Shown: positions 2 through 57,250 of the stretch, piece after piece
Numbering within the stretch: position 1 is the stretch's first letter
Layout: every line of letters starts with the position of its first letter
Position numbers and translations under genes: made by a program
Virus record (IMG/VR): IMGVR_UViG_3300050015_000702
DNA from: a virus
Direction: 5' to 3' (one strand)
DNA length: 64,000 nt
Notes under the pieces: generated by a model
The model's database searches: none
Told to the model about the DNA's origin: nothing
The model's input: only the letters and a program-made list of their open reading frames with translations

Positions 2-355
2 AGAGGGATTTTAGATAAAGCTCTAAAATCTAGTAGATTGCTAAAACCCTTTGCCAATACCTCGCTAAAATATCAGGGAACATATGAATTAGATTTTTTA
101 GAAAAATATTATAATAGTTATCCAGATATTAAAAAAGGATTTTCTTTCAGATATAATTATAATGGCAAAAATAGAGTCTATCACTCTGATTTTTATATTC
201 CTTCTTTAAATTTAATTGTCGAAATAAAAAGTTCGTATATTTTAACACTTGATATAGAAATTGAAGAAAAAAAGAAAAGTGTTTTGAATAGCGGATATAA
301 CTATATAATGATACTTGATAAAAATTATGAAAAAATGATAAATTATGAAAAATAA
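2..355 (+). CDS. TnsA-like/PD-(D/E)xK homing endonuclease, 5' partial
   Basis: Frame is open from the window start. YQGTYELDFLEKY...YHSDFYIPSLNLIVEIKS matches the C-terminal nuclease domain of 40309..41118. Confidence 0.7.
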   Translation, partial: RGILDKALKSSRLLKPFANTSLKYQGTYELDFLEKYYNSYPDIKKGFSFRYNYNGKNRVYHSDFYIPSLNLIVEIKSSYILTLDIEIEEKKKSVLNSGYNYIMILDKNYEKMINYEK

Positions 356-1157
356 GGTAATTGTTGGTAAGAAAATATTATTCATAGGAGACATCCACGG
401 TAATTCAGAGTGGGAAGATCTTGTAAAAGAAGGTCTAAAATCTTTTTATGAAATTGTTTTTCTTGGCGATTATGTCGATAGTTTTCACGTTCGTCCAGTA
501 GAACAAATTCACAATTTAAATAATCTTGTTAATTTTTTAAGCAAGCAACGTAAGATTGGTGGCAAAGTTACTGCTCTTTTGGGAAATCATGATTATGCTT
601 ATATCTATAATTATCCAGGTATAAGTGGACATAATTTTATTCAAGGACCAGAATACCGTAAGATATTCACAGATAATCTTGATTTATTTCAAATGGCCTG
701 GGGATATGCTAGTGCCAATACTGGAAGATATACTCTTGCCAGTCATGCAGGATTAACTCAAACATTTTGGAGTCAGTTTATGTTACCGGAAATGAATAAT
801 CCAGAAAGTACGGTTGCTCAATTAATTGCTGCTGAAGAAAGAGGAAATGGAAGTGTCGATGGCGATCCATTTAAACCGGCTCGAAAATTGGCTATTCATG
901 AGAAGCTAAATTTTTTCAGGGATAAAAGCGACATTTTATGGAAAGTAGGATCTGATCGTGGTGGATGGGGAACTCCCGGACCACTATGGGGGGATTTCAG
1001 AGAATTGCTTGAAGATCCATACGAAGGAATTGATCAGGTTGTAGGGCATACACCCAAAATTTCTCCTTCGGTAGTTCCAAACCAGAATGGATGTTTTTAT
1101 GCTTGTATTGACAATTGGGGAAATAAAAAAACAGCTAGCTTGATCGTCTCTTTATAG
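345..1157 (+). CDS. calcineurin-like metallophosphoesterase
   Basis: GDIHG, GDYVD, GNHD, SHAG and GHT motifs. Confidence 0.9.
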   Translation: MKNKVIVGKKILFIGDIHGNSEWEDLVKEGLKSFYEIVFLGDYVDSFHVRPVEQIHNLNNLVNFLSKQRKIGGKVTALLGNHDYAYIYNYPGISGHNFIQGPEYRKIFTDNLDLFQMAWGYASANTGRYTLASHAGLTQTFWSQFMLPEMNNPESTVAQLIAAEERGNGSVDGDPFKPARKLAIHEKLNFFRDKSDILWKVGSDRGGWGTPGPLWGDFRELLEDPYEGIDQVVGHTPKISPSVVPNQNGCFYACIDNWGNKKTASLIVSL

Positions 1158-1182: not shown

Positions 1183-2220
1183 ATGAAAGTTATTATAAGT
1201 ATTGATGGCGGCGGAATACGAGGAATTGTAACCGCCGCCATTTTAGATTACATCGAAAGAAAGATACAAGAAATTCAGGGGGATAATAGAATAAGAATTG
1301 GTAATCTAGTTGACTTAGTGGCTGGAACCTCTACCGGATCTATTGTTGGAGCTCTAATGCTTATTCCATCTGAAACAAGTCCATGGGCAAAATATACCAT
1401 GAAAGAAATCATAGATTTGTATTTTAGTTTAGGAGAAACTGTTTTTAAATCTGACACTAAACATAATTTTAAAACTTTGTGGGGATTAATTGGTCCACAA
1501 TTCTCTGCAAGTAATATCGAGGATCCATTATTAACTCAATTTAATCATTACAAATTAAAGGACCTTATTAAACCTTGTTTATTTACTGGCTACGACATCG
1601 ACAAAAGAATAGTCAATATCTACACTAACTCGGATATAGATCGAAAATATGCTGAGTATTATGTAAAGGATATTGTAAGAGGATCTACTGCTATTCCATC
1701 AATTTTTCCACCAGCTTATTTTAAAGAAGGAATTGACATTAATACTATTGTCGATGGTGGAGTTTTTGCAGGGAATCCTTCCATGATTGCTTATATTGAA
1801 GCATTCAAAACACTTTTTGGAAAAGCAGATAATGTTGCAAATTTAGATCCTAATCAAGTTCTGATGATTTCTTTAGGAACTGGAATAGGAGTTAGAACCC
1901 CATATTCATTCAATACAGTTAAACGTTGGGGAAAAGCTCAATGGTTAATGCCGGTTCTAAATGTCCTAATGTCCGCAGCAACAGATATTACCGATTATGA
2001 AATGTCGATGATGTTTAAATCTGTTTTGAGAAATGATAACTATAAAAGAATAAATCCCCCTCTTACCCATAATGTTCAACCTTCTACCGATGCATCAAAA
2101 GAAAACATGTTGAATCTGCTGAAAGATGCCAACGATTACATCGAAGCAAATAAAGCATATCTCGATTTAATTGCACATGAAATTTGTGATCTTCACTACC
2201 TAATTAAGCTCGACGATTAA
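1183..2220 (+). CDS. patatin-like phospholipase
   Basis: DGGGIRG oxyanion loop, GTSTG nucleophile elbow and DGG catalytic Asp. Confidence 0.92.
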   Translation: MKVIISIDGGGIRGIVTAAILDYIERKIQEIQGDNRIRIGNLVDLVAGTSTGSIVGALMLIPSETSPWAKYTMKEIIDLYFSLGETVFKSDTKHNFKTLWGLIGPQFSASNIEDPLLTQFNHYKLKDLIKPCLFTGYDIDKRIVNIYTNSDIDRKYAEYYVKDIVRGSTAIPSIFPPAYFKEGIDINTIVDGGVFAGNPSMIAYIEAFKTLFGKADNVANLDPNQVLMISLGTGIGVRTPYSFNTVKRWGKAQWLMPVLNVLMSAATDITDYEMSMMFKSVLRNDNYKRINPPLTHNVQPSTDASKENMLNLLKDANDYIEANKAYLDLIAHEICDLHYLIKLDD

Positions 2221-2428: not shown

Positions 2429-4795
2429 ATGAGTCAAAGAAACGTATTGATCCTTGAAAGATCGAGCCAAAACCTTCAAAAGATAAGTAAAGAAGGAAAA
2501 GTTGTCCTAGAAGGTGTCTTTGCCGAATTCGGAGTCGAAAACAGAAATGGACGTATTTACGAGGAAAAGGAATACCTTCCACATTTGGAATATCTAAAGA
2601 AAGATATTGCATCAGGTAACTTACTTGGCGAACTAGATCACCCAGAACGTTTTGAAGTAGCCTTAGGCAGTGTTTCTCACAGAATTTCCGAACTTTGGTA
2701 TGACCAATCCGCTAGACAAATTAAAGGTAGAATTGAGGTTCTCAATACACCTAAAGGCCAGATCGCTAAATCTCTTTTAGAAGCTGGTATCCCACTTTCA
2801 ATCTCTTCACGTGCCGCTGGTACGGTCAATGAAGACAAAACCGTTTCAATTCAGCAAATTTACACTTATGACTTAGTTGCTAAGCCAGGGTTTGAGAATG
2901 CCCAATTGTCAACCGTTAATGAAGGTGCTAAGGCACGTATTCAGAGTCAAATTTCTAAACTAAATGAGTCTTACAGTAAAGGTGCGTCTCATAACGTTGC
3001 CAAGACTGAATTTGGTATAGTCAATGAAAATATTACTATTGTCGATTTAACTGACAAATTTCCATCAGTTAAGTTGAGGGAAGAGGCAATTGCCCTTCAA
3101 AACCCAAACGTTAAAAATAAAAGCGAGTTTAAAATGGAAAATGTTAATGAAGATCAGGCTCTTCAGCAATGGACAGTATTCTTTAAAAACGAGCTTAGCA
3201 AAATGAACCAAAAGTTAACTTCAATTGAGAACACTATTCTTGAAGGAACTAATGAAGGTGTTGCCAAAGAAATTGGAATTATTAAGGAATACCTTGAAAA
3301 ACTAAGAGGCGTTCAAGAAAAATCTCTTAATTGGACAGGCGATATTGCTAAAGCAGTTAACAAAGTTGCTACCTATGCAGACACTCTTGCAGAAAAGAAC
3401 AACGTTCACTACAAACTTACAAAGAAAGTAGTTGAGACAGTTGATCACAATGCTAAGACTTTAAATGCAACCCAGGACTGGGTAGGTAACAATGCAAAGA
3501 TTCTTAATATTGTTGCAGAAACAGTAGACCACAATGCAGAAATGACAAACGGTCTAAATGAATGGAACGGCCAAATTTCTAAGGCAGTTAATGCACTCCA
3601 TGAATGGGGTGGCGAAAAAGCAAAAGCAATTAATGGAATTCACGAGTGGACTTCATCTATTGCAAAGAATGTAAACGAAATGGCAAACTGGTCAGAAGAC
3701 ATGTTCGGAAGAGCAGTTAGCAAAGAAGATGCGAAGACTCTTATTAAATATATCGAGTTGGTAGCTGAATCCAAAAAGGATCCTGAACTCAAGGCAAAAC
3801 TTGACGAAACACTATCTAAACATGGGATCACCGAAAAACCATTAACCGAATCTATGATCACAGGAATTAAAGGAATTAAAGGACTCGGTGTTATCACAGA
3901 CGTTACTAAAATTGGCAACGAAAAAGTAAACACCGATGCTGGCAAGAGTGCTGGCGTAACCTTCGATGGTAAAACTATCGTTGCGAAAATGAATAAATCT
4001 AAAGTTGGTTCTGGAAACAAACCAAAGGCTCTAAAGACGATCGAAGATCAGAAAATGGAACCAGGTAAAGTATCCGGAGCTAAAGTAAAAGGAATTATGG
4101 TTCTTGACAAAATCAGCGGAACCCTACATTCTGTAAAAGGAACCTCAACAGAAGGTAATCTCAAAACTTCAAAACAGAACATGAAGCTTGATACCAAACC
4201 TGCTGGAAAGGGATTTATAACCGAAAAACAGGAAACTCCAATTCTTACAAAGGCACCCGCCATTAAAGAAAGAGCTTCTAAACTCGATGAGAAACTAAGT
4301 GCAATCATTACCAATATCGAAAAAGAAAAGACTTTGATTGAAAACGCGAGGGCTCAATATCCATTTATCGCTCTCTTAGCTGAAAGTGATAAGAAAGATT
4401 TTGCTGCACTATCAGACTCCGACAAAAAGAAGGTAGCCGCAGAAGTTAGCAAAAATCCAACTGTTGATTCTGGAACAATTAAAGGACTATGGTCAGCTGC
4501 ATTAGTTGAAAACAAAGTTGAAGAACCATTATGGTTAGCACTTGCTCCAAAAGAGTACAAAGAGCTATACACAAAGGCTTCTCCCGTTATGCAGGAATCT
4601 ATTAAAGCTAGATCAGAATTCTATCCTCTAGAAACACAGTACCAAATCATCAATTTCTGGGAAACTTCTAAGATTGCCCCAAGAACATCAAGCCTCAATG
4701 AGGTCTTCGTTGCTCCAGGCGTTAAGGGAGAAGAACCAAAAATGGACCCATTCATCGCTCAAATCGGTGAAGAAATGAAAAGGTATCAGAGATAA
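2429..4795 (+). CDS. gp21: T4 gp21-like prohead protease fused to a long scaffold-like region
   Basis: NRNGRIY, GELDHP (His), ISSRAAG (Ser) and TYDLVAKPGF in the first ~165 aa. Coiled-coil-like C-terminus. Lies directly upstream of the major capsid gene. Confidence 0.9.
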   Translation: MSQRNVLILERSSQNLQKISKEGKVVLEGVFAEFGVENRNGRIYEEKEYLPHLEYLKKDIASGNLLGELDHPERFEVALGSVSHRISELWYDQSARQIKGRIEVLNTPKGQIAKSLLEAGIPLSISSRAAGTVNEDKTVSIQQIYTYDLVAKPGFENAQLSTVNEGAKARIQSQISKLNESYSKGASHNVAKTEFGIVNENITIVDLTDKFPSVKLREEAIALQNPNVKNKSEFKMENVNEDQALQQWTVFFKNELSKMNQKLTSIENTILEGTNEGVAKEIGIIKEYLEKLRGVQEKSLNWTGDIAKAVNKVATYADTLAEKNNVHYKLTKKVVETVDHNAKTLNATQDWVGNNAKILNIVAETVDHNAEMTNGLNEWNGQISKAVNALHEWGGEKAKAINGIHEWTSSIAKNVNEMANWSEDMFGRAVSKEDAKTLIKYIELVAESKKDPELKAKLDETLSKHGITEKPLTESMITGIKGIKGLGVITDVTKIGNEKVNTDAGKSAGVTFDGKTIVAKMNKSKVGSGNKPKALKTIEDQKMEPGKVSGAKVKGIMVLDKISGTLHSVKGTSTEGNLKTSKQNMKLDTKPAGKGFITEKQETPILTKAPAIKERASKLDEKLSAIITNIEKEKTLIENARAQYPFIALLAESDKKDFAALSDSDKKKVAAEVSKNPTVDSGTIKGLWSAALVENKVEEPLWLALAPKEYKELYTKASPVMQESIKARSEFYPLETQYQIINFWETSKIAPRTSSLNEVFVAPGVKGEEPKMDPFIAQIGEEMKRYQR

Positions 4796-4865: not shown

Positions 4866-6620
4866 ATGAAACAATTAAACGAACAACAAATCGTAGAAAA
4901 ATGGAGTCCTATGATTGAGTCTACAACCGGTCTTAAAGATAAGTCAAGACTTAATTGGATTTCTAAATACGCTCATTTTCACGCCTTAAACGAGGCTGAC
5001 ATGGGTGGTGTATCTGCACCATATGCAACTCTATTCAATGTTCCTGGCGTTGGTAATGCTCAGCCTGCTTCTCAGGCAGCTACAACTGGTAACCAGTTCT
5101 ATCAGCAAGGTACAAAGGGTTCAGGTGACAAATGGCCTGCACTTCTTCCAATGGCTCTTCAGGTTGCTGCAAGAACAGTTGGTTTCGACATCGTTAACGT
5201 AATTCCTATGGCTGGTCCAACTGGCGTAGTTTCTTACCTTGATTATGTATACGCTGGTGGAAAACAGCCTTATGGCGCTCCTCCTGCTCACGATCCAAAC
5301 TCAGCTAACCCTCCTTATTTCCAGGGAAGCAACGCAACCGGAAAATTTGAAGCTCCACTTGCATTCAAAATCCAGCTAAAAGCTGTTGATGCTTCTGCAG
5401 TTGTAGCCGGACTTTACAATGGTGAAGTTGTTACATTCCAGAATGGCGGACCTTCAATTCAGGTTACAGCTACTTATATTGGAAAATCACGTATTGATGG
5501 TTTTGCAATGTTTAAAACAGGCGCTTTCACAGGAACAACCAAGAACTTAGCAGAAGTATTTGATGGCTCAGCTATCATCGTTTCTGACACATCAGTTGGT
5601 GGTGTTGTTACTACTTACCCAACCTTAGTTTCTACTCTTGAAGATCAGATCCAGGGATTCACTGGCGCTGGCGAACAGGACAATAACGCATGGCAGGGAA
5701 CATTCGTATCAGGTACAACCCTTTACGAACCTATGGAAAGAGGCGTTGGTGAAATGCAGTACCCAAGGGCTTTAGGTCTTCAGGTATTCACCAAATTCGT
5801 TACCGTTGGAACTTACCAGGTATCAGTTTCTGTAACTCAGGAACAAATTCAGGACCTTAACAAACAGTGGGGTATTGATGTTATCGCAATGGTAGAAAAC
5901 GCTGGTATCAACGAAATCAGCCAGTCAATTAACAAACACATCCTTTCAAGATTATTCGGTCTAGGATGGAAGAACCACCTTAGAGCTTACAATGCTGAAG
6001 CTATTAACCTTAACTTCAGAGTAGACTCATCAGCTGACGGCGTAACTGCTGCTTATGCTTATCCAGATGGCGACACCACTTTCTCAACCGCAACAATGAT
6101 CATCCCAGGTTATAGAAGCTATGGCCCAGCTAACACTGGATCATTCGAAAACCAGGATACAGCTATCAAGAGAATTATGGCTCTTATACTAGCTGGTGGA
6201 AACGTTATTATGCAACGTGGTCGTAGAGGCCCAGCTAACTTTATCGTTACAAACATAAAGATTGCTACCGCTCTTCAGACAAACGCACAGTACACATTCT
6301 CCCCAATCGCTAACACATTCAACCAGAATAACGGATCTCTTTATCCACTCGGAACCATCGCAGGAATGACATTATATGTTGATCCTAACATGATGTACGA
6401 AGACACAAGAGTACTTATCGGAAGAAAAGGTGCTAGTGACGAACCAGGAACAGTATTCTGCCCATACTTAATGGCTGAATCAGTAAAACTCATCACCGAA
6501 GGAACAGGTGCTCCAAAGGTAATCATCAAATCAAGATACGCTCTTGTAGATGCAGGTTTCCATCCTGAGACCCAGTATCTCTGCTTGTACATCAAGACAA
6601 ACGCAGGTGCATTACTTTAA
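4866..6620 (+). CDS. gp23: major capsid protein, T4 gp23-like
   Basis: EKWSPMIE N-terminus, VIPMAGPTG, QEQIQDL, EISQSINK, GxIAGMTLYVDP, FCPY and KSRYAL motifs of the gp23 family. Confidence 0.92.
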   Translation: MKQLNEQQIVEKWSPMIESTTGLKDKSRLNWISKYAHFHALNEADMGGVSAPYATLFNVPGVGNAQPASQAATTGNQFYQQGTKGSGDKWPALLPMALQVAARTVGFDIVNVIPMAGPTGVVSYLDYVYAGGKQPYGAPPAHDPNSANPPYFQGSNATGKFEAPLAFKIQLKAVDASAVVAGLYNGEVVTFQNGGPSIQVTATYIGKSRIDGFAMFKTGAFTGTTKNLAEVFDGSAIIVSDTSVGGVVTTYPTLVSTLEDQIQGFTGAGEQDNNAWQGTFVSGTTLYEPMERGVGEMQYPRALGLQVFTKFVTVGTYQVSVSVTQEQIQDLNKQWGIDVIAMVENAGINEISQSINKHILSRLFGLGWKNHLRAYNAEAINLNFRVDSSADGVTAAYAYPDGDTTFSTATMIIPGYRSYGPANTGSFENQDTAIKRIMALILAGGNVIMQRGRRGPANFIVTNIKIATALQTNAQYTFSPIANTFNQNNGSLYPLGTIAGMTLYVDPNMMYEDTRVLIGRKGASDEPGTVFCPYLMAESVKLITEGTGAPKVIIKSRYALVDAGFHPETQYLCLYIKTNAGALL

Positions 6621-15200: not shown

Positions 15201-15223
15201 AAAAAAAGGGAAATAATTCCCTA
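15201..15223 (-). terminator. rho-independent terminator
   Basis: Minus strand AGGGAA-ttat-TTCCCT followed by a T run, at the stop of 15221..15709. Confidence 0.7.
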
Positions 15224-15709
15224 TTTTTCTTCTTCTGAGCGATTAGAATCACATTTATCTAATAATTCTGTGAATAACGTGTGAAATAATATGGGATCCT
15301 TAAAAATAGTTCTTGTAAATTCACCCCAAAACTTAAGTAGGTCATGAGTATCAATTTCATCACCATTTTCGGCCGTTTTTGTGATGATATTTTTGAAAAA
15401 AGATCGTGTAGTAGGGGTGTGAAGCCAATCGTTTTTTCCAGTTTTATAATCTTCTCCAAAAGACTCCTCTAGAGCCTCGCTAAGATTTTTATCAAAGAAT
15501 ATTTCTTTATTTCCTTGACGACTGGTATATGCATATTTATGGGCAATTTTTTGAATAGAATCTTTAACTTCCCATATTTCGTCATCTCCAATACCTTTTT
15601 CCTGTAGTTTAGTTTTGATAACTTCTACTTCCCCGATCCCTAAATGTTTTATCGGGTCTTCTGAACGTAAAAAACCCTGGTCGCCCAGGGATTCTTTAAC
15701 TATTTTCAT
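15221..15709 (-). CDS. hypothetical protein with N-terminal FER-like motif (single module)
   Basis: MKIVKESLGDQGFLRSEDPIKHLGIG matches the repeat found in 45785 and 52080. Confidence 0.75.
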   Translation of the reverse strand: MKIVKESLGDQGFLRSEDPIKHLGIGEVEVIKTKLQEKGIGDDEIWEVKDSIQKIAHKYAYTSRQGNKEIFFDKNLSEALEESFGEDYKTGKNDWLHTPTTRSFFKNIITKTAENGDEIDTHDLLKFWGEFTRTIFKDPILFHTLFTELLDKCDSNRSEEEK

Positions 15710-42863: not shown

Positions 42864-44707
42864 TGGCAAATATTTTTAAAGATTTTAAAGTACCTGGTCA
42901 CATATTAAATGTCCCTGGTATATTTCTAGATCCTACAAAAGGGATTACGAAAACATTTGATGAGCCAACCTATCTAACTTTTAGAGTGGAGTTTCTTCCT
43001 ATGAATACAAATATGGAATCCACAAACTATGATAGGATGCCAATGCCATTATTTAGTTTATCAGATGAAGATATTGATGTTCGTAACAATTATTCTGCTA
43101 TAAGTTATTTAAAAGATTCAAACGAAGTTGGCCGTGCTCAAATGATGGCTAGTTTTATCAATGGCTGGAATATAGTTCAAAATAATTTTCAGTGGTATTT
43201 TCAGGGAATTTCTAATTTAAATGATTTATTTGCTGTAGATCCTAAGAGAGGCATTCGTATAAGCACAGAGGGAAAAGTTACCATGTCAATGCTTGAAGGT
43301 CTTGACTGGAGAATTACTCACTTACTTAATCTTTACAGAAAAATTGCTTGGGACGATGTTTATCAAAGATGGATGCTTCCTGATATGATGAGATATTTTG
43401 CAATGAATATTTACATCACAGAATTCCGTTCATTCCATCAATCTTCATATACCGAACAGGCAGCTTTAGGTTCCGGCCCTGAATTAAGCGGTGAAATGGT
43501 TTTAAAAGTCATGGGAGATGTAATGCCTACTTGGGTTTTACATTGTGAAAGATGCGAATTTGATATTACTTCTCTAAACTCCTGGATTACTGATTTGAAA
43601 GTTAACGAAGAAACTATGACTGAAGTTACTTTCGATATTAAAGTTGGCCAGTTAACTGATGAGTATGTAAACCCTATTTTGGACTATTGGTATTGGGATC
43701 AGGATTTAAATGGTCAGAACAGAACAGCTGATGATCCATCCGGAGTTCTTAGAACTTCATATAAAAATAGACAAATTCAATTTTTAAATCAGGAAACAGT
43801 AGCTGGCGGGCCTCATACAGAAAATCATCCATTTATCGAAACTGGTGGTTCTGGAGCTTCAAATATATCAAATGCTCAAAAAGCTATGCAGGGTCCTTCA
43901 GCAGATCTTAATCCAGTAGATCCTGTTGGTTCTGGAGCTTCAAATATATCAAATGCTCAAAAAGCTATGCAGGGTCCTTCAGCAGATCTTAATCCAGTAG
44001 ATCCTGTTCAACCATCTACTTGGTTAGGAAATACTTTGACATTAGGAAAAGCATTAGTTAAAAACTTGGTGAATACTCAGGTTAATAAAGCCCAGGTTAC
44101 CAAGATTCCTGGATTAGGATTCTCATTTAATGAAGCTTTATCTGCAATTCAGAGTAAAAACATATTTGCAGTCTTTGCTCTTGCAAGGGAAGCAATTACT
44201 CAATCAGTTGCTAAAACAACTCCTTCGCAGGAACTTGATCATAAAATTATAGAACAAGGATTAAAAGCATTTCTTAGGGGAATTGCTCATTCACAAGCTA
44301 CGACTCCTCCAACTCAAGAACTTGTTAAAGCTGCAGAACAGATTCTCAATGATCGAGGTCAATGGCAAAAACTTATGGATTACTCATTAGCTACCGATTT
44401 GGTTTCAAGAGAAACAGGGGAAGTAAATATAACAAATGCTCTAAAGAATCCTAATACTGAGAGGGATATTGCCAAAATTGAAACAGGAGGATTTCTATCC
44501 TTTGCAACCGATGCAAATGGAAACACATTAGTTGGGAGTCCTATAATTGAAGCTATTCCTTCTAGTTTAGCAACATCAGGTCATATTAATGTTGGACCAA
44601 AACCATCTGTGGTACCAAGTGAAGCAACAGTAGGGGCATTACAAGGAAATACTCATCTATCATCTGCACCAAAAAGTGAAGCAACAATAGGAACTATACA
44701 AAAATGA
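42863..44707 (+). CDS. virion structural protein (tail/baseplate)
   Basis: 614 aa in the baseplate operon; DEPTYLTF and WYFQGI motifs. Confidence 0.55.
   Translation: MANIFKDFKVPGHILNVPGIFLDPTKGITKTFDEPTYLTFRVEFLPMNTNMESTNYDRMPMPLFSLSDEDIDVRNNYSAISYLKDSNEVGRAQMMASFINGWNIVQNNFQWYFQGISNLNDLFAVDPKRGIRISTEGKVTMSMLEGLDWRITHLLNLYRKIAWDDVYQRWMLPDMMRYFAMNIYITEFRSFHQSSYTEQAALGSGPELSGEMVLKVMGDVMPTWVLHCERCEFDITSLNSWITDLKVNEETMTEVTFDIKVGQLTDEYVNPILDYWYWDQDLNGQNRTADDPSGVLRTSYKNRQIQFLNQETVAGGPHTENHPFIETGGSGASNISNAQKAMQGPSADLNPVDPVGSGASNISNAQKAMQGPSADLNPVDPVQPSTWLGNTLTLGKALVKNLVNTQVNKAQVTKIPGLGFSFNEALSAIQSKNIFAVFALAREAITQSVAKTTPSQELDHKIIEQGLKAFLRGIAHSQATTPPTQELVKAAEQILNDRGQWQKLMDYSLATDLVSRETGEVNITNALKNPNTERDIAKIETGGFLSFATDANGNTLVGSPIIEAIPSSLATSGHINVGPKPSVVPSEATVGALQGNTHLSSAPKSEATIGTIQK
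43847..44008 (+). repeat. perfect 81-bp tandem duplication (27 aa x2)
   Basis: GSGASNISNAQKAMQGPSADLNPVDPV occurs twice, identical at the DNA level. Confidence 0.95.
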
Positions 44708-45015
44708 GAGCCGAATTCATATTTGAAAAAGTAAATTTTGAACGAGGAAACGAATACGATCCTCTTCGAACTCTTAATATTGGTCATAAGAAAACTGAGA
44801 AAGAGCTAGAAGCAATGTATAAAAAAGTTTTACACTTTAATCTTGGCGTTGAAAGAAAAAGTTTCTCCAATGAAATTAGTGCTGCCATTCCAGAAAGATT
44901 ATTAGCAAGCTGTGGTTGGGGAAATGCTTTTAAATGCTTTGAGGAAATGTGGCCAGAAGAAATAGATAAATTCGATAGAATTCTTACAAAATATTACAAC
45001 AAATTTAAAGAGTAA
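44704..45015 (+). CDS. FER-motif single-module protein
   Basis: IFEKVNFERGNEYDPLRTLNIG N-terminus. Confidence 0.75.
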   Translation: MRAEFIFEKVNFERGNEYDPLRTLNIGHKKTEKELEAMYKKVLHFNLGVERKSFSNEISAAIPERLLASCGWGNAFKCFEEMWPEEIDKFDRILTKYYNKFKE

Positions 45016-45785
45016 TGGAAAGTCTACACTTACAAATGAAAGATCTACATGATAATGACTGGTTAGGCATTATCGAAAACAATGTGGATACACTTTTTTC
45101 AGGACGAGCACAAGTAAGAGTATTTAGGTTATTTGATAACTTAAATTCTAAGGATCTTCCATGGGCTGTTCCAATTAACTCCACTATATTTGCTGGAGAT
45201 GGAGCAGGGTCAATTTCGACTCCAAAAATTGGTCAGATTGTAAGGGTTCAGTTTAATAACGGGGACTTATATTCTCCAGAATACACAACTATTCAAAATA
45301 TTGATACTCAGCTTATAGATGAGATCAAAAATGATTACGATGGAACCCACGTTCTACTTTATGACCCCGATGAAGAATTAAACGTTATTTATCAGCGTCA
45401 AAGAGGATTTCAAATGTTTTATCGTGGCAGTTTTATTCAGATCTCTCCAGATAATATGATTACGATTCAGCATGCTAATCATGAATCCCTAATCCAGCTA
45501 AACGGAGATAAGATGAGTATTGTTACCAAGAATGAAATTGCTATCTCTGCCGCAGCTAAAGTAGAAGTTACAGCTGATGAAGTAAAGGCAGCAGGTAACC
45601 AAGTAACTAAGCTAGGACCTGGGCCTTATAACCATGCTGTAATGGCAGAAATATTATTTCCTTTGTTACAAACTATGGCAACAGCAATTGATGCTAAAAT
45701 GCCTCAAACACCAGGAGTCAATGTTGGCTTAGTAAAAGCAGCTCAACAAGCAGCTACCTCAACTAACGTATTAATTTCGCAGTAA
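45015..45785 (+). CDS. gp5: baseplate central spike, gp5 N-terminal OB-fold-like
   Basis: GIIENNVD....GRAQVRVF...LPWA...PKIGQIVRVQF.NGD...PEY followed by beta-strand-rich repeats. No lysozyme domain is visible. Confidence 0.75.
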   Translation: MESLHLQMKDLHDNDWLGIIENNVDTLFSGRAQVRVFRLFDNLNSKDLPWAVPINSTIFAGDGAGSISTPKIGQIVRVQFNNGDLYSPEYTTIQNIDTQLIDEIKNDYDGTHVLLYDPDEELNVIYQRQRGFQMFYRGSFIQISPDNMITIQHANHESLIQLNGDKMSIVTKNEIAISAAAKVEVTADEVKAAGNQVTKLGPGPYNHAVMAEILFPLLQTMATAIDAKMPQTPGVNVGLVKAAQQAATSTNVLISQ

Positions 45786-46912
45786 TGAAAATAGTTAGAG
45801 AATCTCTAGATTTTGAAAGAAGTCAGAACCCGATAGACGCTTTGAATATTGGCATAAAAAAGAAGATCTATAGCCAATTAAGATCTTTTGTGGATAATGA
45901 AATGATTGGGGGAACAGGATTAGGGGATCCAAGATTTATGTATAGTTTTTATCCATCAGGTGAGGATTCTTTTTGTTTTTATGGCGAGGGAGGAAAAAAC
46001 TATATTAATGGCTTGATTAAAAAATATGGTTTGGATCAGTATTTCGATGGTAAAGGCCAAATTGAGGAAAAAACCTCTAATAGATACACGATTAGATTTA
46101 AAGTAAAAAAAGAATTACAACATATATTTGAAGAAATCCCTACCTCTTTTCATTTTATAAAAATGGAAGAGAGTTTGGACTTCGAAAGACACAAAGAACC
46201 ATTTGATGCATTGAGTCTTGGAATATACGACAAAGTTAAAAAAGGATTAAATTGTCTTAGATTATCCCCAGGAATTGGTTCAATTAGTATCATGAGTAAC
46301 AAAGATGAAGTCTGGTTGAGTATCGATGACTATAATGGCAACGGAAGATTCACGGATTATCTTTACCAATGTCTTAGCCCAAATTATTTTGAAGGTGAAG
46401 TAGAACATAGGGATATTATGAAAAGAGGGGGAAGTTGGAGAAGTAAATTCATAGTCTATGTTAGTTCACCGTATTGGGATGCTTTCAAAGCAGCTTTTGA
46501 TCCAAATGGAGGTATAAGGGAATCTGTTAATTTTGAACGTACAGGAGAACCTCTTAAAAAACTTGGAATAGGAAGATCTACTCCAGGTGTTGGACAATTT
46601 GCTCCTGCTTATTTAGAAGGAAGAGGACTTTGCAATGTATTAAAAGTTGAAAAGTATAAAGATCTTACCCCCGAAGAAAAAGATTCTTTAGCCATTTGGT
46701 ATGGCTCTTCCTTGATGCGAAATGAAAAAGACAAAACGAATCCAAATCAATTATGGGTAGAAATTATGCCAGAATTAAAACGTAAAAGTGTAACTGAAGT
46801 TGAAGAAGAGTGGATGGATGTTGATCGATTTGAAATATTGAAGAAAAAAGGCAGATGGATGGATCCGCAATGGAGGAAATCATACAAGAATCCTTATGAG
46901 CCTAAAAAGTAA
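45785..46912 (+). CDS. three-module FER-motif polyprotein
   Basis: VRESLDFERSQNPIDALNIG, MEESLDFERHKEPFDALSLG and IRESVNFERTGEPLKKLGIG. Confidence 0.8.
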   Translation: MKIVRESLDFERSQNPIDALNIGIKKKIYSQLRSFVDNEMIGGTGLGDPRFMYSFYPSGEDSFCFYGEGGKNYINGLIKKYGLDQYFDGKGQIEEKTSNRYTIRFKVKKELQHIFEEIPTSFHFIKMEESLDFERHKEPFDALSLGIYDKVKKGLNCLRLSPGIGSISIMSNKDEVWLSIDDYNGNGRFTDYLYQCLSPNYFEGEVEHRDIMKRGGSWRSKFIVYVSSPYWDAFKAAFDPNGGIRESVNFERTGEPLKKLGIGRSTPGVGQFAPAYLEGRGLCNVLKVEKYKDLTPEEKDSLAIWYGSSLMRNEKDKTNPNQLWVEIMPELKRKSVTEVEEEWMDVDRFEILKKKGRWMDPQWRKSYKNPYEPKK

Positions 46913-50426: not shown

Positions 50427-51216
50427 CTTTTTTCTCTGCCCAGTATTTTCGTATTCCATTTATTAGATTTTGTTTCACATCTGGACGCTGCATAGCATTT
50501 CGAGTTAGAATTTTTATGTTATCTCTTTCATTCTGATTCTCAAATCTTTTTTGAAGTTTCTTTTTAATTTTTTCTTTTGTCTCTAAGCTTTTTTCGCCAA
50601 GTCCTTTTCCCCTTCTATTTTCAGATATTTTATTTTTTATTATTATAGCTTCTTTTTCTCCATGCCTTTCTTCGAAAGTCTTATCTAAATATAAATCTTT
50701 TAAAAACTCCTTATTTTCTAAAGTCATTTTTTTACCAAATCTAGGATGTAATTCTCCTTCTTTTCCATACATTGGATTATTCTCTCCGATATTAGCTAAT
50801 CGGTAATTTTCTCTAGATTCTAAAGATTTGGGTTTTCCTTTTAATTTTTTTCGAATTATTTCTTTTGTAGCTTCCGTATGATGATAAAATTTAACACCTT
50901 GACCCCCTTCCGTCATATTATACCCAAATTCTTTTCCAAATTTGCTTATGCATGTTTTGTTTGTTTCAATCCAATATATTTCTCTTTCATTTAATTTATT
51001 AATTAAATCAATTCTTTCTGCAAATTCATAAGCTTCCACAGTCTCCCATAAAATCTGATCCTTATATTTTTTTAAAGCATTATGAAAAATAGTATTATCG
51101 TTCGAACTTCTAGAAGAATAATGTCTTTTAACCCTTTTTTCTAAACTACCGATAGATTGCCCATAATATTTTTTATTTGATGGACTTGTTGCACAATAAA
51201 TAATCCCCTTATACAT
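50359..51216 (-). CDS. GIY-YIG homing endonuclease
   Basis: GIIY...KKYYGQS, ALKKY, GYNMTEGG and GENNPMYGK; GATATATA promoter at 51230-51237. Confidence 0.88.
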   Translation of the reverse strand: MYKGIIYCATSPSNKKYYGQSIGSLEKRVKRHYSSRSSNDNTIFHNALKKYKDQILWETVEAYEFAERIDLINKLNEREIYWIETNKTCISKFGKEFGYNMTEGGQGVKFYHHTEATKEIIRKKLKGKPKSLESRENYRLANIGENNPMYGKEGELHPRFGKKMTLENKEFLKDLYLDKTFEERHGEKEAIIIKNKISENRRGKGLGEKSLETKEKIKKKLQKRFENQNERDNIKILTRNAMQRPDVKQNLINGIRKYWAEKKAKEVVDSRQENHTSALLSVPMI

Positions 51217-51308: not shown

Positions 51309-51316
51309 GATAAATA
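51309..51316 (+). promoter_or_regulatory. putative late promoter GATAAATA
   Basis: 16 nt before the ATG at 51333; would also drive the 52080 polyprotein. Confidence 0.55.
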
Positions 51317-51332
51317 AATAAAACTTCCAACT

Positions 51333-52073
51333 ATGATGAATTTCCATTTTTACCCAGAAAAACTTGTTTGCGAATCTCTTGAAGAATTATACGGAGAAAA
51401 CGAAATAGAATATTCGAGTGGCGAACAAGCTGCTATATCAAGAGGCAATGATGTTATAACCAAGCCACAATTAGCTGCCATGTATTTAGCTGCGAAAGAT
51501 GCTATGGGAAGGTCGGAAGATACTCAAGGAAGAGGAGATAGCGGGTTGACACGTAATGCACTAAAAATGGGCAAAGAAACTATCACAGACTGGCAAAAAC
51601 TATCTGCTCCAAGACTAGGAGATGTATTAGATCTTAAACCTCGTACAGTTAGCTACACATTGTCGAAATTCAGACTTTTATTACAAAATAATCGTGAAGG
51701 AGTCTTTGGTAATGATTTATATGATAAGATAATTAATGCGTTTGATGAATTTGAAAAAATGTCGCCAGCAGATGTATATTCATTAGCTTCGGAAGCTGTA
51801 AACTTGGATGCAACTACTGAAAGATCCGACAAATGGGCTGAGGATACATCCGATCAAGGTAGAAAAACAAGAGAAAAAATACAGAAAAGAAATGCTAAAA
51901 TTATTCAAGCTACCTATGATTTATACAATCAGCTTAGGGGAGTTTTGGGTGAAAAAGCACCAAAAGCAGTTGTTAATAAACTTTCAACAGAATATAAAAT
52001 ATTCCCGGAAGATCTTCGCACGATAATTAAGCAGGGTCTAAAGAATGATCAGAATTTAGCCAGAAAATTCTAA
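51333..52073 (+). CDS. hypothetical helical protein with N-terminal LVCE|S site
   Basis: 246 aa under a late promoter. Confidence 0.7.
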   Translation: MMNFHFYPEKLVCESLEELYGENEIEYSSGEQAAISRGNDVITKPQLAAMYLAAKDAMGRSEDTQGRGDSGLTRNALKMGKETITDWQKLSAPRLGDVLDLKPRTVSYTLSKFRLLLQNNREGVFGNDLYDKIINAFDEFEKMSPADVYSLASEAVNLDATTERSDKWAEDTSDQGRKTREKIQKRNAKIIQATYDLYNQLRGVLGEKAPKAVVNKLSTEYKIFPEDLRTIIKQGLKNDQNLARKF

Positions 52074-52079: not shown

Positions 52080-55000
52080 ATGAAAGCCCTTACAATATCA
52101 GAGAAGTTGAACTTCGAACGAACCGGTGCCCCCATTAAAAAAATGGGTATCGGCACACAAGTCGAAGATCAAAAGATTCTGGACGAAACCGATTGGGCTA
52201 TTGATCTAGAAAAACATGCTTTTCTATACGATATTGTTGTCTTGATAAGAGATTATAGAGGATACCCCATTCTTGTTTTAAAGAATAAGAGTCAGGGATC
52301 ATGGCAATTTCGTGCCATTTCAAGAGTTGGGGTTTTTGGGGATTATCAGCCAACACCAGAACAAGCTTTAATTAATCTGAAAAGAAGTATTGATAAAGAA
52401 ATACAAAAGGAAAATGATTCATGGAAAGAGTGGGAAAAGAATAAAGACAAAATGCGAGGAAAACCGCTAAAAGAAGATATAAATTTTGAACGAGGAGGAG
52501 AATCTCTAGACAAACTAAGAATTGGTAAGAAATATCAATGGGATATGACTAGCGAAGAACTAGCTATCCATATCATAGAAGACATTGAAGAAAAAGTAAA
52601 ACCCGTTATGGCTAAAATAGAATTAGCTGTAAAAAAAGCTGGATTTCGTTCTTTATCTGAATATAATAATTATGTTTTGGATCAATATGATAAGACGGAT
52701 TCGACTCCATCCACAATTCATGCATCTAAAGAAATAGATATTGCTGAAAAGGAACTTGAAGATCTTATTAAAATAGAAGTAGCAAAATATCCATTTAAAG
52801 AAGGTATTAATAATATTGGATTTGTTATAGGGGATTTGTTCAGTCTAATGCTTGAAGGCGGAGCTTTTATGACTCATGTTGATATAATTAAAGGATATTT
52901 GGACAAAACATATCTTAAAGAATCTCAAAACTTTGAAAGAGGCCAAGAACCTATTAAATCTCTTCAAATTGGTCAAATGGCTCTACGAATAAACAAATTT
53001 AAACAATTGGAAAAAGCACTAGAGGAACAATTTCCTGGATTTCTGAGAGAGCCTATAGTGGACGATGATAATTATATTAGAAAAAGTATACAAGTATCTC
53101 CGTATGTTCAAGGAGGTAGTGCCAAAGGAATAGTTAATCAGTGGTTGAGAAAGAATTTGCCCGAATTCCGAATTTCCAGATTGCAGGATGTTGGATACAT
53201 TAAACACGATGTTTATTCTATGGAGATTGAATGGAAATATGACAATCTTGAGGAATCTATTAACTTTGAAAGAGGGCAAGAACCCATTAAATCAATGGGG
53301 ATTGGTCAAACTTATTTAGATAAAAAACTTATACAAGAAATTGATTGGGGCTTGGCAGATAATTTTATGGAGGTTTATCGTCTAGGAACTTTTATAAGAA
53401 ATTATAAGGGATTTCCAATTTTAATTATTATTTCGGACGCTGTTGGCGGTATTATGGCCGTTACTTCAGATCCTGGCTTAAGAAGCGATTGGAAAAAAGC
53501 TGAAACAGAAGCTCTTCAAAGTATTAAAGGAAAAATAAATGCTCGTGATCAAAGAGAAAAAAGATTGATTAAACATAATACAATGAAGGAATCCGTTAAC
53601 TTTGAAAGAGGCGGGGATCCTATACGTTCTATGGATATTGGAATGTTCCATTTTGACGTTGAATTCTCGGGGGATATTGAGAATATGGAAGATGATGAAA
53701 GAGCTATAGCCAAGAGATGGAATTACAATGGAGTTAAAATTACTCACATTGAAGGTGAAGCCGATGAAGATAGTTCAGAATTGTATATCAATTTATCAGA
53801 CGGAGATTACATTGAATTTACACAGAAATCATGGACAGGTCCTTCTCATGATCCAAATAAAACAAATTATGCTAAAATATCTGTCAAAAATTCAGGTGTT
53901 AAAGATTTAAATGTATTTGATGAATGGTTAGAAGAACTTTCAGCTGGCTCAATTATTAGAGCTACCATGAGAATGTATGAAGATATTAAGGATGGCAAAA
54001 TGAAGACCCAAAACGAGTCTTTAGATTTTGAACGTCACGAAGATCCTTTTAAAGCTCTAAAGATTGGTAGAGAAGCTCAAGCTGAAAGTTTTAAAAAATT
54101 TATTGAAGACTATTTAAAATGGAATGGGGCTGAAATCATCATAAATGAAGATGGAAGCTTTACTTATTATTGTTATCCTGGCCAATCTGTAAGAAGAGAG
54201 ATTTTAGAAGCTATTCATGAATATGGGGAAGCCGGAAAATACAAAGTTAAAGCTATAGATCTTACATCTAGAGGAGATCCAGATGGAGAAGAACGTCACG
54301 AATATCTTATTAGTCCTAAAGCATCCAAAGCTAGAAAAGTAAACGAAAACGTTTATTTTCAGAGGGAAGGGGATCCATTGGATACTTTGCAAATTGGAGA
54401 TATTAAAGGAAGAAAAATTCAGCATGACAAAGAATTACTTTTCTCAACACTTCATGACATGGCGGATAAATTCGGGACAGGGATAGTTGAGGTTGTAACA
54501 AATAAAAAATCTACACAACTAGCTCCCGATGCTCAAATACTTCAAGCACAGTTCAAATCAAATAGTAAAATTACTTATGGTGCTTTTCTAGTATTTGAAG
54601 CTGGATTAGAAATTCCTCATTATGTGTATTATTTTAGAGAGGGAGAAGATGAAATAAAAACCTGGTGCAAAGATATAACAGCGGTCATTAATGAACTAGA
54701 AATGAAAGTAATCAGATTGGAATCTGTTACTGAAGCCGCTAATTTTACTCGAGTAGGAACCCCGCAAAAACAAATGTCAGTGGGTCAAACAGCAATTGAT
54801 AAAAACATCATAGACAATACTCCCTGGAATATCAATGAACTTGTTCCTAACTGGAGAGACGAATATCGTATTATAGAAGTTATTAGGGATTATAAAGGAG
54901 AGCCTATTTTGGTTTTGGAAAATCACAAGGCCGGAAATTTTTTGGCTATAGCTATAAGTCGTAGGTCTTTTCATCACGGGGACCCAAAAACAGCTTTAGC

Positions 55001-55397
55001 TGAACTAAAAGAATTCATTGATGAAGATCAAGAAGAGAATCTATTCGAAGCAGTACATTTTAATCGTGAAGGAACCCCACTTGAAAAAATGGATATCGGT
55101 AGTGAGGATCAAAGAGAAATTTCTAAGATGGATCGTTTTGCAAAAGAATTTAGCTTTGAAAAATCCGGTTTATCTGGAACAGAATATACTCCCGAAGATG
55201 GATACATTCCTATTCAAAAATGGATTGGTCCAAAAGGTCAATGGATTGTACTTGAAAAACAATTAGACGATAAACATACTCTTAAATATTGGGTAGCTTG
55301 GAAAGGATGGGAATGGGGAAAAGACAATGGTCTAGCAAGAAGTTTTACAGATAGTAGCAAGAATTGGGAATTTTATTTTAATTATCCTTTAGCCTAA
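52080..55397 (+). CDS. nine-module FER-motif polyprotein (putative protease-processed capsid cargo)
   Basis: Nine copies of xxE|Sx[ND]FERxxxPxxx[LM]xIG, separated by ~100-150-aa modules. Confidence 0.8.
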   Translation: MKALTISEKLNFERTGAPIKKMGIGTQVEDQKILDETDWAIDLEKHAFLYDIVVLIRDYRGYPILVLKNKSQGSWQFRAISRVGVFGDYQPTPEQALINLKRSIDKEIQKENDSWKEWEKNKDKMRGKPLKEDINFERGGESLDKLRIGKKYQWDMTSEELAIHIIEDIEEKVKPVMAKIELAVKKAGFRSLSEYNNYVLDQYDKTDSTPSTIHASKEIDIAEKELEDLIKIEVAKYPFKEGINNIGFVIGDLFSLMLEGGAFMTHVDIIKGYLDKTYLKESQNFERGQEPIKSLQIGQMALRINKFKQLEKALEEQFPGFLREPIVDDDNYIRKSIQVSPYVQGGSAKGIVNQWLRKNLPEFRISRLQDVGYIKHDVYSMEIEWKYDNLEESINFERGQEPIKSMGIGQTYLDKKLIQEIDWGLADNFMEVYRLGTFIRNYKGFPILIIISDAVGGIMAVTSDPGLRSDWKKAETEALQSIKGKINARDQREKRLIKHNTMKESVNFERGGDPIRSMDIGMFHFDVEFSGDIENMEDDERAIAKRWNYNGVKITHIEGEADEDSSELYINLSDGDYIEFTQKSWTGPSHDPNKTNYAKISVKNSGVKDLNVFDEWLEELSAGSIIRATMRMYEDIKDGKMKTQNESLDFERHEDPFKALKIGREAQAESFKKFIEDYLKWNGAEIIINEDGSFTYYCYPGQSVRREILEAIHEYGEAGKYKVKAIDLTSRGDPDGEERHEYLISPKASKARKVNENVYFQREGDPLDTLQIGDIKGRKIQHDKELLFSTLHDMADKFGTGIVEVVTNKKSTQLAPDAQILQAQFKSNSKITYGAFLVFEAGLEIPHYVYYFREGEDEIKTWCKDITAVINELEMKVIRLESVTEAANFTRVGTPQKQMSVGQTAIDKNIIDNTPWNINELVPNWRDEYRIIEVIRDYKGEPILVLENHKAGNFLAIAISRRSFHHGDPKTALAELKEFIDEDQEENLFEAVHFNREGTPLEKMDIGSEDQREISKMDRFAKEFSFEKSGLSGTEYTPEDGYIPIQKWIGPKGQWIVLEKQLDDKHTLKYWVAWKGWEWGKDNGLARSFTDSSKNWEFYFNYPLA

Positions 55398-55729: not shown

Positions 55730-57250
55730 TTAATTTGTTGCAACTGAAATAGATCTAGCTAAAAGAGCAGTTTTGGCAGTTAAGCCATCTCCAGTTGGAG
55801 CGGCATTACCAGTACCTGTAAGATTAATATTTCCATATTGAGGCCAGGAGGATACATTGGTACTTATATCAATTAAAAGTTGATTCACAACAGATTCTGT
55901 AAGTAAATTACTATCTAGATATAAAGCTCGTAATCTATACCACTCTGGGTGATACGTAAATGAAGTAAGTTTATTATTTGAGAGCTGAATTTGATAAATC
56001 ATTGTATTCTCCGGTTTTAATGGGGATGAAGTTATAAGATTATTAACAGCTATTAAATATTGCAAATTTGTAAGTTCAGCAGGAATATCCAAAGAAGTTA
56101 AACTATTCTCCGAAATAGTCAAATAGTATAATGGAGTCCATTCTGGCTTAACTGTAAAAGAGGATAAAGAAGCATCGTTTAATCCCAAATACGATAAATG
56201 GGTATACGCAGCAGGAACATCTACCATTCCTAGTTTATTGCTACCAAGATCCAAATTACTCATATTTGTCCATTCCGAGCGTAATTCCACAGATGTTAAA
56301 AAATTAGATGCTAAATACAATACGGTTAAATTTACCCATTCTGGATAAGAATTAAAAGAAGTTAGTGAGTTATAATATAAATACAGCTGAGTTAAATTTG
56401 CCCACGTTGAAGGGCAGGGAATCGTGTTTAATGTAGTATAATATATTTGAAGTGTATTCATTTGGATCCATTCTGGAGGGAGATAAAGTGTAGATATATC
56501 ATTAGAACCCAATGATAAATTTAGCATCTTTGATAATTCTGGTTTTCCAATAAAAGAATGTAACCCACATCCATCTAAAGCTAAATATTGTAAATTTACC
56601 CATTCTGGAAGAGTAGGATCAGTTCCGATAGGAGAATAATATAATTCCAGAGTATTTAGATTTATCCACTCTGGTTTTAATACAGGAGCAGTTAACTCAT
56701 AATTATATCCTAACCCCAAATAAGCTAAATTAGTCCATTCAGATTTTCCATCAAAAGAAGTTAAGTGGCAGCCATCCAAATTAAGATGAGATAAAGGCCA
56801 TTCGCTTTTAGTTGGAAAAGAGGTCAAAGGGCTCCAAGTAATATCCACATATTGCAAATTAGTAAATCCGTCTCCAATATCAATTGATTCCACTTGGGCA
56901 CTATTAAAAGCAATTTGGTTTAAATTAGTTCCATTTCGAAGGATTGCATATCTCATAGGATAGCCAGCGTTATCTAAATATGTTATTTGAGATATATCTT
57001 GAATAGTCCACTTATCCGGAGGCGTTCCTGAATAATCATGATACGGATAAGAAGAAGGTGCTACATTTTCAATAGTTCCATCTCCCCAGTTTACGTTTAA
57101 ATTTGAAGACCCAACAAAATTGAATCCAGCACTGGAATATCCATTTACCGTTCCAAATTCATTTGGCCAAGAAATAGGCGCAGGACCTCCATGATGAACA
57201 AAACTATGTCCTCGTTTCACAAATTGGTCTGTACGTTTTACAATTGACAT
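55730..57250 (-). CDS. leucine-rich repeat protein with PKD-like N-terminus (probable virion/receptor-binding)
   Basis: About 16 repeats of ~22 aa (PEWxNLxxLxLxxNxLTS) and VNWGDGT. Start reassigned to ATG 57250 (TAATG overlap). Confidence 0.8.
   Translation of the reverse strand: MSIVKRTDQFVKRGHSFVHHGGPAPISWPNEFGTVNGYSSAGFNFVGSSNLNVNWGDGTIENVAPSSYPYHDYSGTPPDKWTIQDISQITYLDNAGYPMRYAILRNGTNLNQIAFNSAQVESIDIGDGFTNLQYVDITWSPLTSFPTKSEWPLSHLNLDGCHLTSFDGKSEWTNLAYLGLGYNYELTAPVLKPEWINLNTLELYYSPIGTDPTLPEWVNLQYLALDGCGLHSFIGKPELSKMLNLSLGSNDISTLYLPPEWIQMNTLQIYYTTLNTIPCPSTWANLTQLYLYYNSLTSFNSYPEWVNLTVLYLASNFLTSVELRSEWTNMSNLDLGSNKLGMVDVPAAYTHLSYLGLNDASLSSFTVKPEWTPLYYLTISENSLTSLDIPAELTNLQYLIAVNNLITSSPLKPENTMIYQIQLSNNKLTSFTYHPEWYRLRALYLDSNLLTESVVNQLLIDISTNVSSWPQYGNINLTGTGNAAPTGDGLTAKTALLARSISVATN

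Follow-up and report, generated by a model that had tools for sequence, protein, structure and literature searches.

P0001 is a protein of 1105 amino acids (aa) encoded by an uninterrupted open reading frame (ORF), 52080..55397 (+), in a 64,000-nucleotide (nt) stretch of viral DNA, IMG/VR record IMGVR_UViG_3300050015_000702; the whole of this stretch is referred to below as the window. We found that P0001 contains nine copies of a short conserved peptide, the FERG tag, each standing at the head of a small module. The reading we favor, with a probability of roughly 55%, is that the polyprotein is made late and enters the prohead, that a gp21-type protease of the phage cuts it after the Glu of each tag, and that the tagged products are delivered from the head. 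This proposal starts from what the analysis shows: a conserved, repeated tag; modules that are independent of one another and have been shuffled; junctions that are flexible in the models; and a prohead protease with His and Ser aligned to two mutated catalytic positions of the T4 gp21 crystal chain.

Results

Nine tag copies divide P0001 into modules

The tag core pattern, F-x-R-x3-[PS]-x3-[LM]-x-[IV]-G, has nine matches in P0001. The tag Phe is encoded at nt 52113, 52485, 52932, 53265, 53601, 54027, 54357, 54744, and 55059, corresponding to residues 12, 136, 285, 396, 508, 650, 760, 889, and 994. Each copy is preceded by a tripeptide ending in Glu (x-x-E) that begins 18 nt 5' of the tag Phe, and consecutive tags are spaced 105-149 aa apart. 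A preliminary description of this DNA had reported nine copies of a motif of about 19 aa, and all nine of its x-x-E starts match ours exactly; the repeat itself therefore stands, but its length does not, as the consensus of 20 residues is longer than first described. We also searched P0001 with a profile hidden Markov model (HMM) of the tag trained on copies from other genomes only, none of them from the window. With this HMM, eight copies out of nine score 22-40 bits (E 1e-11 to 7e-6).

All nine tags are on the plus strand, and a slash marks the predicted cut in each. Tag 1 (ISE/KLNFERTGAPIKKMGIG, 52095..52154, 24.2 bits) is N-terminal and stands behind an 8-aa leader, MKALTISE. It is followed by tag 2 (LKE/DINFERGGESLDKLRIG, 52467..52526, 22.5 bits), tag 3 (LKE/SQNFERGQEPIKSLQIG, 52914..52973, 34.1 bits), and tag 4 (LEE/SINFERGQEPIKSMGIG, 53247..53306, 38.8 bits). 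Tag 5 (MKE/SVNFERGGDPIRSMDIG, 53583..53642) has the highest score, 39.8 bits, and its module is the best conserved across orthologs. Tag 6 (QNE/SLDFERHEDPFKALKIG, 54009..54068, 24.7 bits), tag 7 (VNE/NVYFQREGDPLDTLQIG, 54339..54398, 23.9 bits), and tag 9 (LFE/AVHFNREGTPLEKMDIG, 55041..55100, 22.0 bits) match both the pattern and the HMM, as do the first five. Tag 8 (VTE/AANFTRVGTPQKQMSVG, 54726..54785) is a degenerate copy that matches the pattern and reaches only 3.0 bits with the HMM.

The segments between the tags had been described as mostly unrelated, which a BLASTP comparison of the module bodies confirms. Only modules 1, 4, and 8 are paralogs (E 1e-9 to 1e-14), and the remaining six showed no BLASTP relation among themselves or to the three modules of a second tag gene in the window, ORF 45785..46912. 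P0001 is made up of nine modules from seven unrelated body families. The protein had no sequence match in Pfam, PHROGs, NCBIfam, or the PDB; against Pfam at E <= 1, we found one sub-threshold chance match only and no peptidase domain. A tblastn search of 50,697 phage records with P0001 and with a 34-aa tag segment gave no real match, the short query having little power.

At the DNA level, the coding sequences of tags 3 and 4 (within 52912-53310) are 80% identical to one another over 66 nt, and a 14-mer, AACTTTGAAAGAGG, is common to the DNA of several tags. Microhomology of this kind in tag DNA could allow modules to be gained or lost through recombination at the tags.

The tag contains a predicted cut site

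A degenerate DNA pattern for N-F-E-R-G-x-D-P...I-G identified 71 loci in IMG/VR, many of them on the same contig, and a HMMER search with P0001 against 1.84 billion cluster representatives returned 197 clusters at E <= 0.001. Tag statistics were drawn from 199 non-redundant instances from the IMG/VR loci and 520 from the cluster representatives. The resulting 20-residue consensus is [LIVM]-[K/N]-E-S-[LIV]-N-F-E-R-G-x-D-P-K-x-[S/A]-M-x-I-G. The search patterns did not demand a Glu at position -4 relative to the tag Phe; this residue nonetheless occurs in 93% of the internal copies (99) and 92% of the N-terminal ones (69) from the IMG/VR loci, and in 97% of 401 internal copies from 161 cluster representatives. 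Position -6 is Leu, Ile, Val, or Met in 76-84% of copies, and position -3 is Ser, Ala, or Asn, mostly Ser. This arrangement of a hydrophobic residue, any residue, and Glu, followed by Ser, Ala, or Asn, fits the specificity of gp21-type proteases. Thus, judged from sequence, the earlier proposal that each module is headed by a gp21-type site agrees with the larger sample. A search of a literature library for the motif strings found no paper containing them, in keeping with the earlier remark that no described family with this architecture was known to its author.

The termini of tagged proteins bear on how the Glu is used. Among the IMG/VR loci, most N-terminal tags lie behind a leader of 5-8 residues, such as M-K-I-V-R-E, and about 10% begin directly as M-N-F-E-R-G without the x-x-E. 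In all classes of copies, the free N-terminus is thus predicted to lie 2-4 residues ahead of the Phe. Such regularity is expected if the chain is cut after the Glu, and it is hard to square with a Glu that is merely part of a binding surface. In internal copies, residues -12 to -7 are unconserved and enriched in Lys, Gly, Pro, Asn, and Asp, as expected of a linker-like stretch.

The 17 conserved residues of the tag lie downstream of the predicted cut and would therefore be kept on each product, so the tag is not a removable propeptide. This placement corrects the comparison in the preliminary description, which had pointed to the T4 capsid targeting sequence, a peptide that gp21 removes. The conserved peptide could equally be an exosite or recognition element for the protease rather than an address, or it might serve some purpose after ejection.

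The tag contains a second bond that might be cut. Among the copies, 96-98% have the Pro and 69-75% have an Asp before it, and the chain could in principle process itself at this Asp-Pro bond, like acid- or calcium-triggered Asp-Pro self-processing modules. However, about 25% of copies have Glu, Asn, or Thr in place of the Asp, and known modules of this type are folded domains of >100 aa rather than flexible 20-aa peptides. Self-cleavage would also leave the conserved Glu at -4 unexplained, and we regard it as highly improbable.

Modules behave as independent, exchangeable units

Tag-bearing ORFs yielded 249 modules that fall into 103 BLAST families. The same module families were found both as N-terminally tagged single genes and at differing positions in arrays, and array length reaches 11 modules among the cluster representatives (P0082, 1511 aa). 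The preliminary description had asked whether module number varies among relatives while the motif is kept. We found that it does: the same genomic slot holds nine modules in the window, six in a second phage, and three in a third (L077). In L077, the three-module ortholog is followed by a GIY-YIG homing endonuclease gene (10999-11589) at the point where the window polyprotein goes on. Beyond it, 3' of the split ortholog, small ORFs with degenerate tags occupy 11586-12743. Their decayed tags include an internal copy, G-G-G-G-F-Q-R-G-N-S-E-I-F-K-H-L-G-I-G, and a truncated one, M-K-I-V-R-E-Y-L-F-G-F-E-R-S-E-D-P-L. These decayed copies suggest that tags erode once a module leaves the system.

Structure prediction points in the same direction. 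An AlphaFold2 model of full-length P0001, built from a 69-row alignment, has a predicted template modeling score (pTM) of 0.35. Within it, confidence is high for those modules whose alignments were usable: the predicted local distance difference test (pLDDT) is 84-97 for module 1, 73-97 for module 2, and 80-94 for module 9, while every junction falls below 50-69. The modules differ in secondary structure, and the tags show one helical turn only, at P-x-x-x. A separate AlphaFold model of modules 4-6 has a pTM of 0.39, with pLDDT >90 for modules 4 and 6 and 43-79 for the three tags. In these models, P0001 appears as separate folded beads joined by flexible, low-confidence tags, and the tag would fit a short linear motif that stays disordered until it meets a partner. 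The predicted beads, the families that occur both singly and in arrays, and the slots with nine, six, or three modules all uphold the earlier view of P0001 as a concatenated array of small domains.

The low pTM, the dissimilar secondary structures, and the low-confidence junctions also argue against a single solenoid with the motif as its core, which the preliminary description had named as an alternative; as far as prediction can tell, P0001 is not one solenoid. A helix-hairpin-helix interpretation of the 'GIG' in the tag is likewise not supported, since the tag is followed by a helix in some modules and by a strand in others. Foldseek searches with the whole P0001 model (PDB and BFVD) and with the three-module model gave generic or noise-level matches only, as did VIA-align against 48,161 chains, and the ESM Atlas gave no usable match. 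For module 6, the resemblance is to a ferredoxin-like alpha/beta arrangement, which is a common one (Z about 7).

Some 95% of the module families lack a Pfam or PHROG match (105 module representatives). The matched modules, one member each, are ankyrin, GNAT acetyltransferase, 2H phosphoesterase/RNA-ligase-like, leucine-rich repeat (LRR), methyltransferase-like, and endosialidase beta-barrel. The few modules with LRR, ankyrin, or endosialidase beta-barrel domains bring to mind a multidomain protein that is never cleaved, in which the motif is a linker or an anchor, for example to the capsid or sheath lattice, and the whole serves as a multivalent decoration or as a string with a structural role. 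Phage fibers and decoration proteins commonly combine a conserved N-terminal anchor with variable distal domains. However, the same modules exist as single genes of 100-150 aa, and the number and order of modules in arrays vary freely, which suits independent units more than a fixed string. In addition, the tags are predicted to be flexible, which would leave no fixed geometry between modules, and the Glu and hydrophobic pattern matches a protease site. We therefore consider an uncleaved string rather unlikely.

The phage encodes a gp21-type protease and a gp23-type capsid protein

The window phage has a T4-type core that includes a gp21-type protease, a gp23-type capsid protein, a gp5-like hub, and a gp6-like wedge. 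The candidate processing enzyme is a gp21-type prohead serine protease of 788 residues encoded at 2429..4795 (+), with its S77 domain at residues ~5-160. It matches Peptidase_S77 (E 2.5e-15), phrog_207 (E 4e-40), and T4 gp21 (5JBL; E 2.6e-5), and it has His and Ser at two positions where the 5JBL chain has Ala. We take the 5JBL crystal chain to be a catalytic mutant of T4 gp21. The S77 match and the retained His and Ser substantiate the gp21 homolog that had been noted at 2429.

The S77 domain is followed by a C-terminal extension of ~600 residues in which E-T-V-D-H-N-A units recur and [VIL]-N-E sites are numerous. This extension resembles a built-in scaffold that the enzyme's own protease domain would chop. 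In relatives, the fused protein as a whole is 786-849 aa long. Among the large proteins of the window, the density of [LIVM][NK]E[small] sites is highest in the protease extension and in P0001; each has 5 such sites against ~1.3 expected. This excess offers modest support for a link between P0001 and the protease.

Downstream, 4866..6620 (+) encodes a gp23-type major capsid protein with an L-N-E/A site at residues 41-44. Its residues 39-47, H-A-L-N-E/A-D-M-G-G, lie at the boundary of the N-terminal extension. The site resembles that of T4 gp23, which is cut at L-T-E/A-E-I-G-G. The best named relatives of the capsid protein are those of Prevotella Lak megaphages (46-47% identical), in which L-N-E is found at the aligned place. 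The window has long ORFs under the standard code; the Lak loci have in-frame stops upstream of the capsid gene when translated with table 11, in agreement with their known recoding. Directly upstream of the protease and capsid genes, a calcineurin-like phosphoesterase is encoded at 345..1157 and a patatin-like phospholipase at 1183..2220; such neighbors are unusual for head genes.

The setting of P0001 is consistent with expression alongside head proteins. A gene for a 246-aa protein of unknown function (51333..52073 (+)) ends 6 nt before P0001, and the two presumably form one transcript. The 246-aa product is 74% identical, and its gene is again adjacent, in one relative; it is absent in another. 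A promoter-like 14-mer, ATAAATAAATAAAA, lies at 51310..51323 (+), ~10 nt before the start of gene 51333. Its sole other exact copy in the window is at 4835, 18 nt before the start of the capsid gene, and a copy with one mismatch is at 2402, upstream of the protease gene. The preliminary description had noted a late-promoter motif at 51309 in this operon, and the operon does carry the same 14-mer as the region upstream of the capsid gene. In other contigs, related GATAAATAAA(G/T)AAAA elements stand before several tag genes. We detected no enrichment of the canonical T4 late promoter, TATAAATA, in the window. A second promoter-like element, GATATATA(G/A)AATAAAA, which differs from ATAAATAAATAAAA, occurs 8-12 nt before several start codons (sites at ~29360, ~33950, ~35520, ~37280, and ~51230(-)).

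Whether the tagged proteins belong to the virion at all can be weighed against this background. They might instead be intracellular proteins whose tag is read by a chaperone, a localization factor, or another protease, with any processing taking place in the cytoplasm. Many tag genes do lie outside structural regions, and the modules are orphans without homology to virion proteins. Against this, one and the same 14-mer lies upstream of the P0001 operon and of the capsid gene, and the logic of the site fits the one protease family found in tag-bearing fragments. We judge a role outside the virion to be unlikely.

P0001 occupies a conserved slot among baseplate genes

The P0001 slot lies between the gene for a 1140-1176-aa protein and genes for a 112-aa protein, a 1223-aa protein, and a wedge protein. 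More broadly, P0001 is flanked by genes for the gp5-like hub, the baseplate wedge, and large tail proteins, and the slot is syntenic in two relatives. Between P0001 and the large baseplate/tail protein gene, 55730-57277(-) encodes a 515-aa leucine-rich-repeat protein, whose gene is missing from that slot in the two relatives examined.

Other tag genes are scattered through the window. A looser tag pattern applied to all six frames of the 64-kb window found four further true copies and one chance-like match, and pattern and HMM together give a total of 14 tag copies in four genes. The three-module gene (45785..46912 (+); tags at nt 45794, 46163, and 46514) adjoins the gp5-like baseplate hub gene. 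A single-module gene at 44704..45015 (+) has a tag split by an insertion (HMM 10.3 + 4.7 bits). Another single-module gene, 15221..15709 (-), bears an N-terminal tag variant (MKIVKESLGDQGFLRSEDPIKHLGIG) and lies in a non-structural neighborhood, adjoining glucosyltransferase and homing endonuclease genes.

These locations raise the question of whether the tag docks modules on the spike, the hub, or the tube lumen, so that the cargo would be loaded on the tail or baseplate with no involvement of the head protease. P0001 has a conserved slot beside baseplate wedge genes, and two other tag genes flank the gp5-like hub gene. Loading on the tail, however, leaves unexplained the 93-97% conservation of Glu with a hydrophobic residue two positions earlier, the direct M-N-F-E-R-G starts, and the tolerance of arrays. 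Moreover, tag genes are also found in non-structural regions, as at 15221, and genome G001 has three separate clusters of them. Tail-loaded cargo is accordingly quite unlikely in our estimate.

The window also contains at least three homing-endonuclease-like genes, at 12406-13059(-), 40309-41118(-), and 50359-51216(-), of which two are GIY-YIG and one is zinc-finger/DUF7487. The gene at 50359 overlaps the 1176-aa gene at its end. DUF7487 is found beside orthologs, but it is a homing-endonuclease-like family unrelated to the tag.

The tag is abundant in one clade of large phages

The window DNA is found in peat metagenome runs, with no RNA dataset listed among its sources, and the tag clade consists of uncultured phages. 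The tag HMM found 38 copies in a 133-kb fragment (estimated to be 33% complete) and 19 in a 66-kb fragment (16% complete), and no copies in three complete Lak genomes. Scaling copies by fragment completeness gives roughly 100 tags in a genome of roughly 400 kb, a rough estimate that leans on CheckV. In 596 Gb of cellular genomes, the tag pattern had only four matches, all on small contigs of metagenome-assembled genomes. These findings suggest that the tag is an invention specific to one clade of roughly 400-kb phages.

We also took a census of proteases in 24 tag-bearing IMG/VR fragments that are 3-34% complete by CheckV and together amount to 2.9 genome equivalents. S77 had three matches in these 2.9 genome equivalents, or about one each. 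The HK97-type S78 protease was found in 0 of the 24 tag-bearing fragments.

Discussion

Altogether, our analysis favors a model in which nine small, autonomous domains make up the P0001 polyprotein, each opening with a flexible 'cut-and-keep' tag 20 residues long. Of these residues, the first three ([LIVM]-x-E) would form the site for the phage's gp21-type prohead protease, and the next 17 (S-x-N-F-E-R-G-x-D-P-K-x-S-M-x-I-G) would stay on the new N-terminus. The chain would be made late, alongside head proteins, and would enter the assembling prohead, where the tag may bind a component of the core, the scaffold, or the protease. A cut after each tag Glu would release the 8-aa leader and products of 124, 149, 111, 112, 142, 110, 129, 105, and 115 aa. 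These pieces would travel in the head with the DNA and would probably be ejected into the host. In this sequence of events, we infer cleavage, packaging, ejection, and the roles of the modules.

How does this model compare with known systems? The prohead proteases of T4, phiKZ, and SPN3US cut head proteins C-terminal to a Glu that follows a short motif (PMC9026906). In T4, the internal proteins have N-terminal capsid targeting sequences (CTSs) of 10-20 residues that are removed by the protease (PMC9026906, PMC5694885, PMC3012670), and these proteins, packed into the head, serve as counter-defense once injected (PMC3012670, PMC9026906, PMC5694885). As in T4 IPI, IPII, IPIII, and Alt, a short conserved N-terminal peptide stands here on otherwise unrelated, fast-evolving small proteins. 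The predicted cut site again ends in Glu, and a gp21-family prohead protease is encoded. The differences are equally clear. In the T4 CTS, the conserved 10-20 residues precede the cut and are removed, whereas here only [LIVM]-x-E precedes it; nothing upstream of -6 is conserved in internal tags, and N-terminal leaders are 5-8 aa long or absent. T4 encodes a handful of separate genes, whereas the tag clade has roughly 100 tags per genome and arrays of up to 11. Finally, the T4 CTS, internal protein, and Alt families have no sequence similarity to P0001. P0001 would thus work most like the T4 CTS and internal-protein system, without its defining removable upstream peptide and without homology to it.

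Other systems share individual features with P0001. Polyvalent proteins of phages and conjugative elements combine many unrelated domains in one polypeptide, are encoded near late or virion genes, and are proposed to be co-delivered with DNA and processed into separate units (Iyer et al. 2017, PMC5512222). P0001 likewise joins several unrelated domains in one phage polypeptide whose gene lies among late or virion genes. However, polyvalent proteins have mostly recognizable enzymatic domains, and none is recognizable in P0001. The cutting of polyvalent proteins is attributed to a zincin-like metallopeptidase within the chain, whereas P0001 has no peptidase domain, and no repeated junction peptide has been described in them, whereas the borders in P0001 are formed by the repeated tag, presumably read in trans. 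phiKZ gp93/95/97 and SPN3US gp53/gp54 are paralogous inner-body and ejection proteins of the head with conserved N-termini and multiple cleavage sites C-terminal to Glu, as confirmed by mass spectrometry in these phages, and are cut by S80 proteases. They lose propeptides of 100+ residues, the cleavage motif is S/A/G-x-E, the genes are separate, and the proteins have no sequence relation to the FERG tag. Outside phages, MIX-type markers are short conserved N-terminal motifs on polymorphic type VI secretion cargo effectors that are loaded on VgrG/PAAR. Here too a motif marks cargo for a contractile injection machine, but the likeness is one of analogy only, as MIX-type markers are bacterial and come without a protease site and without polyproteins.

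Several observations weigh against cleavage and delivery from the head. First, the [LIVM]-x-E motif is low in information and is present inside modules too. Second, the conserved part of the tag is on the P' side, unlike in every characterized capsid targeting sequence, and for this reason the retention of the tag and its role in addressing are guesses. Third, the promoter-like match comprises three sites, a count that 5 of 100 shuffles reach. Fourth, P0001 lies among baseplate rather than head genes, and tails assemble apart from heads. Finally, the co-occurrence of the tag with S77 is inseparable from shared ancestry within one clade, and Lak phages have the same capsid type and a similar L-N-E site with no tag; therefore, the protease type alone does not require the tag.

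Why would a phage encode so many copies of one peptide? A further suggestion, which we hold tentatively and at somewhat less than even odds, is that the FERG tag is a retained, portable address with which a clade of ~400-kb phages loads ~100 different, rapidly exchanged small proteins into the capsid, and that the protease reads the same peptide to cut arrays. If so, by fusing and splitting genes at the tag the phage could rearrange a 'protein kit' that is co-packaged stoichiometrically and injected. Such a cargo-loading grammar would be distinct from the removable CTS of T4 and would predict the virion cargo of uncultured megaphages.

If the tag marks packaged proteins that are released by a protease, what huge uncultured phages carry in their oversized capsids besides DNA would become readable from metagenomes, and the cargo readable here would comprise >100 orphan families, or about a tenth of coding capacity. 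The model, if true, would also supply a novel peptide handle with which foreign proteins could be packaged into phage heads. Moreover, it would extend the idea of T4 'internal proteins' as counter-defense to polyproteins, and fusion and fission at a defined junction would be a route by which the cargo of these phages evolves.

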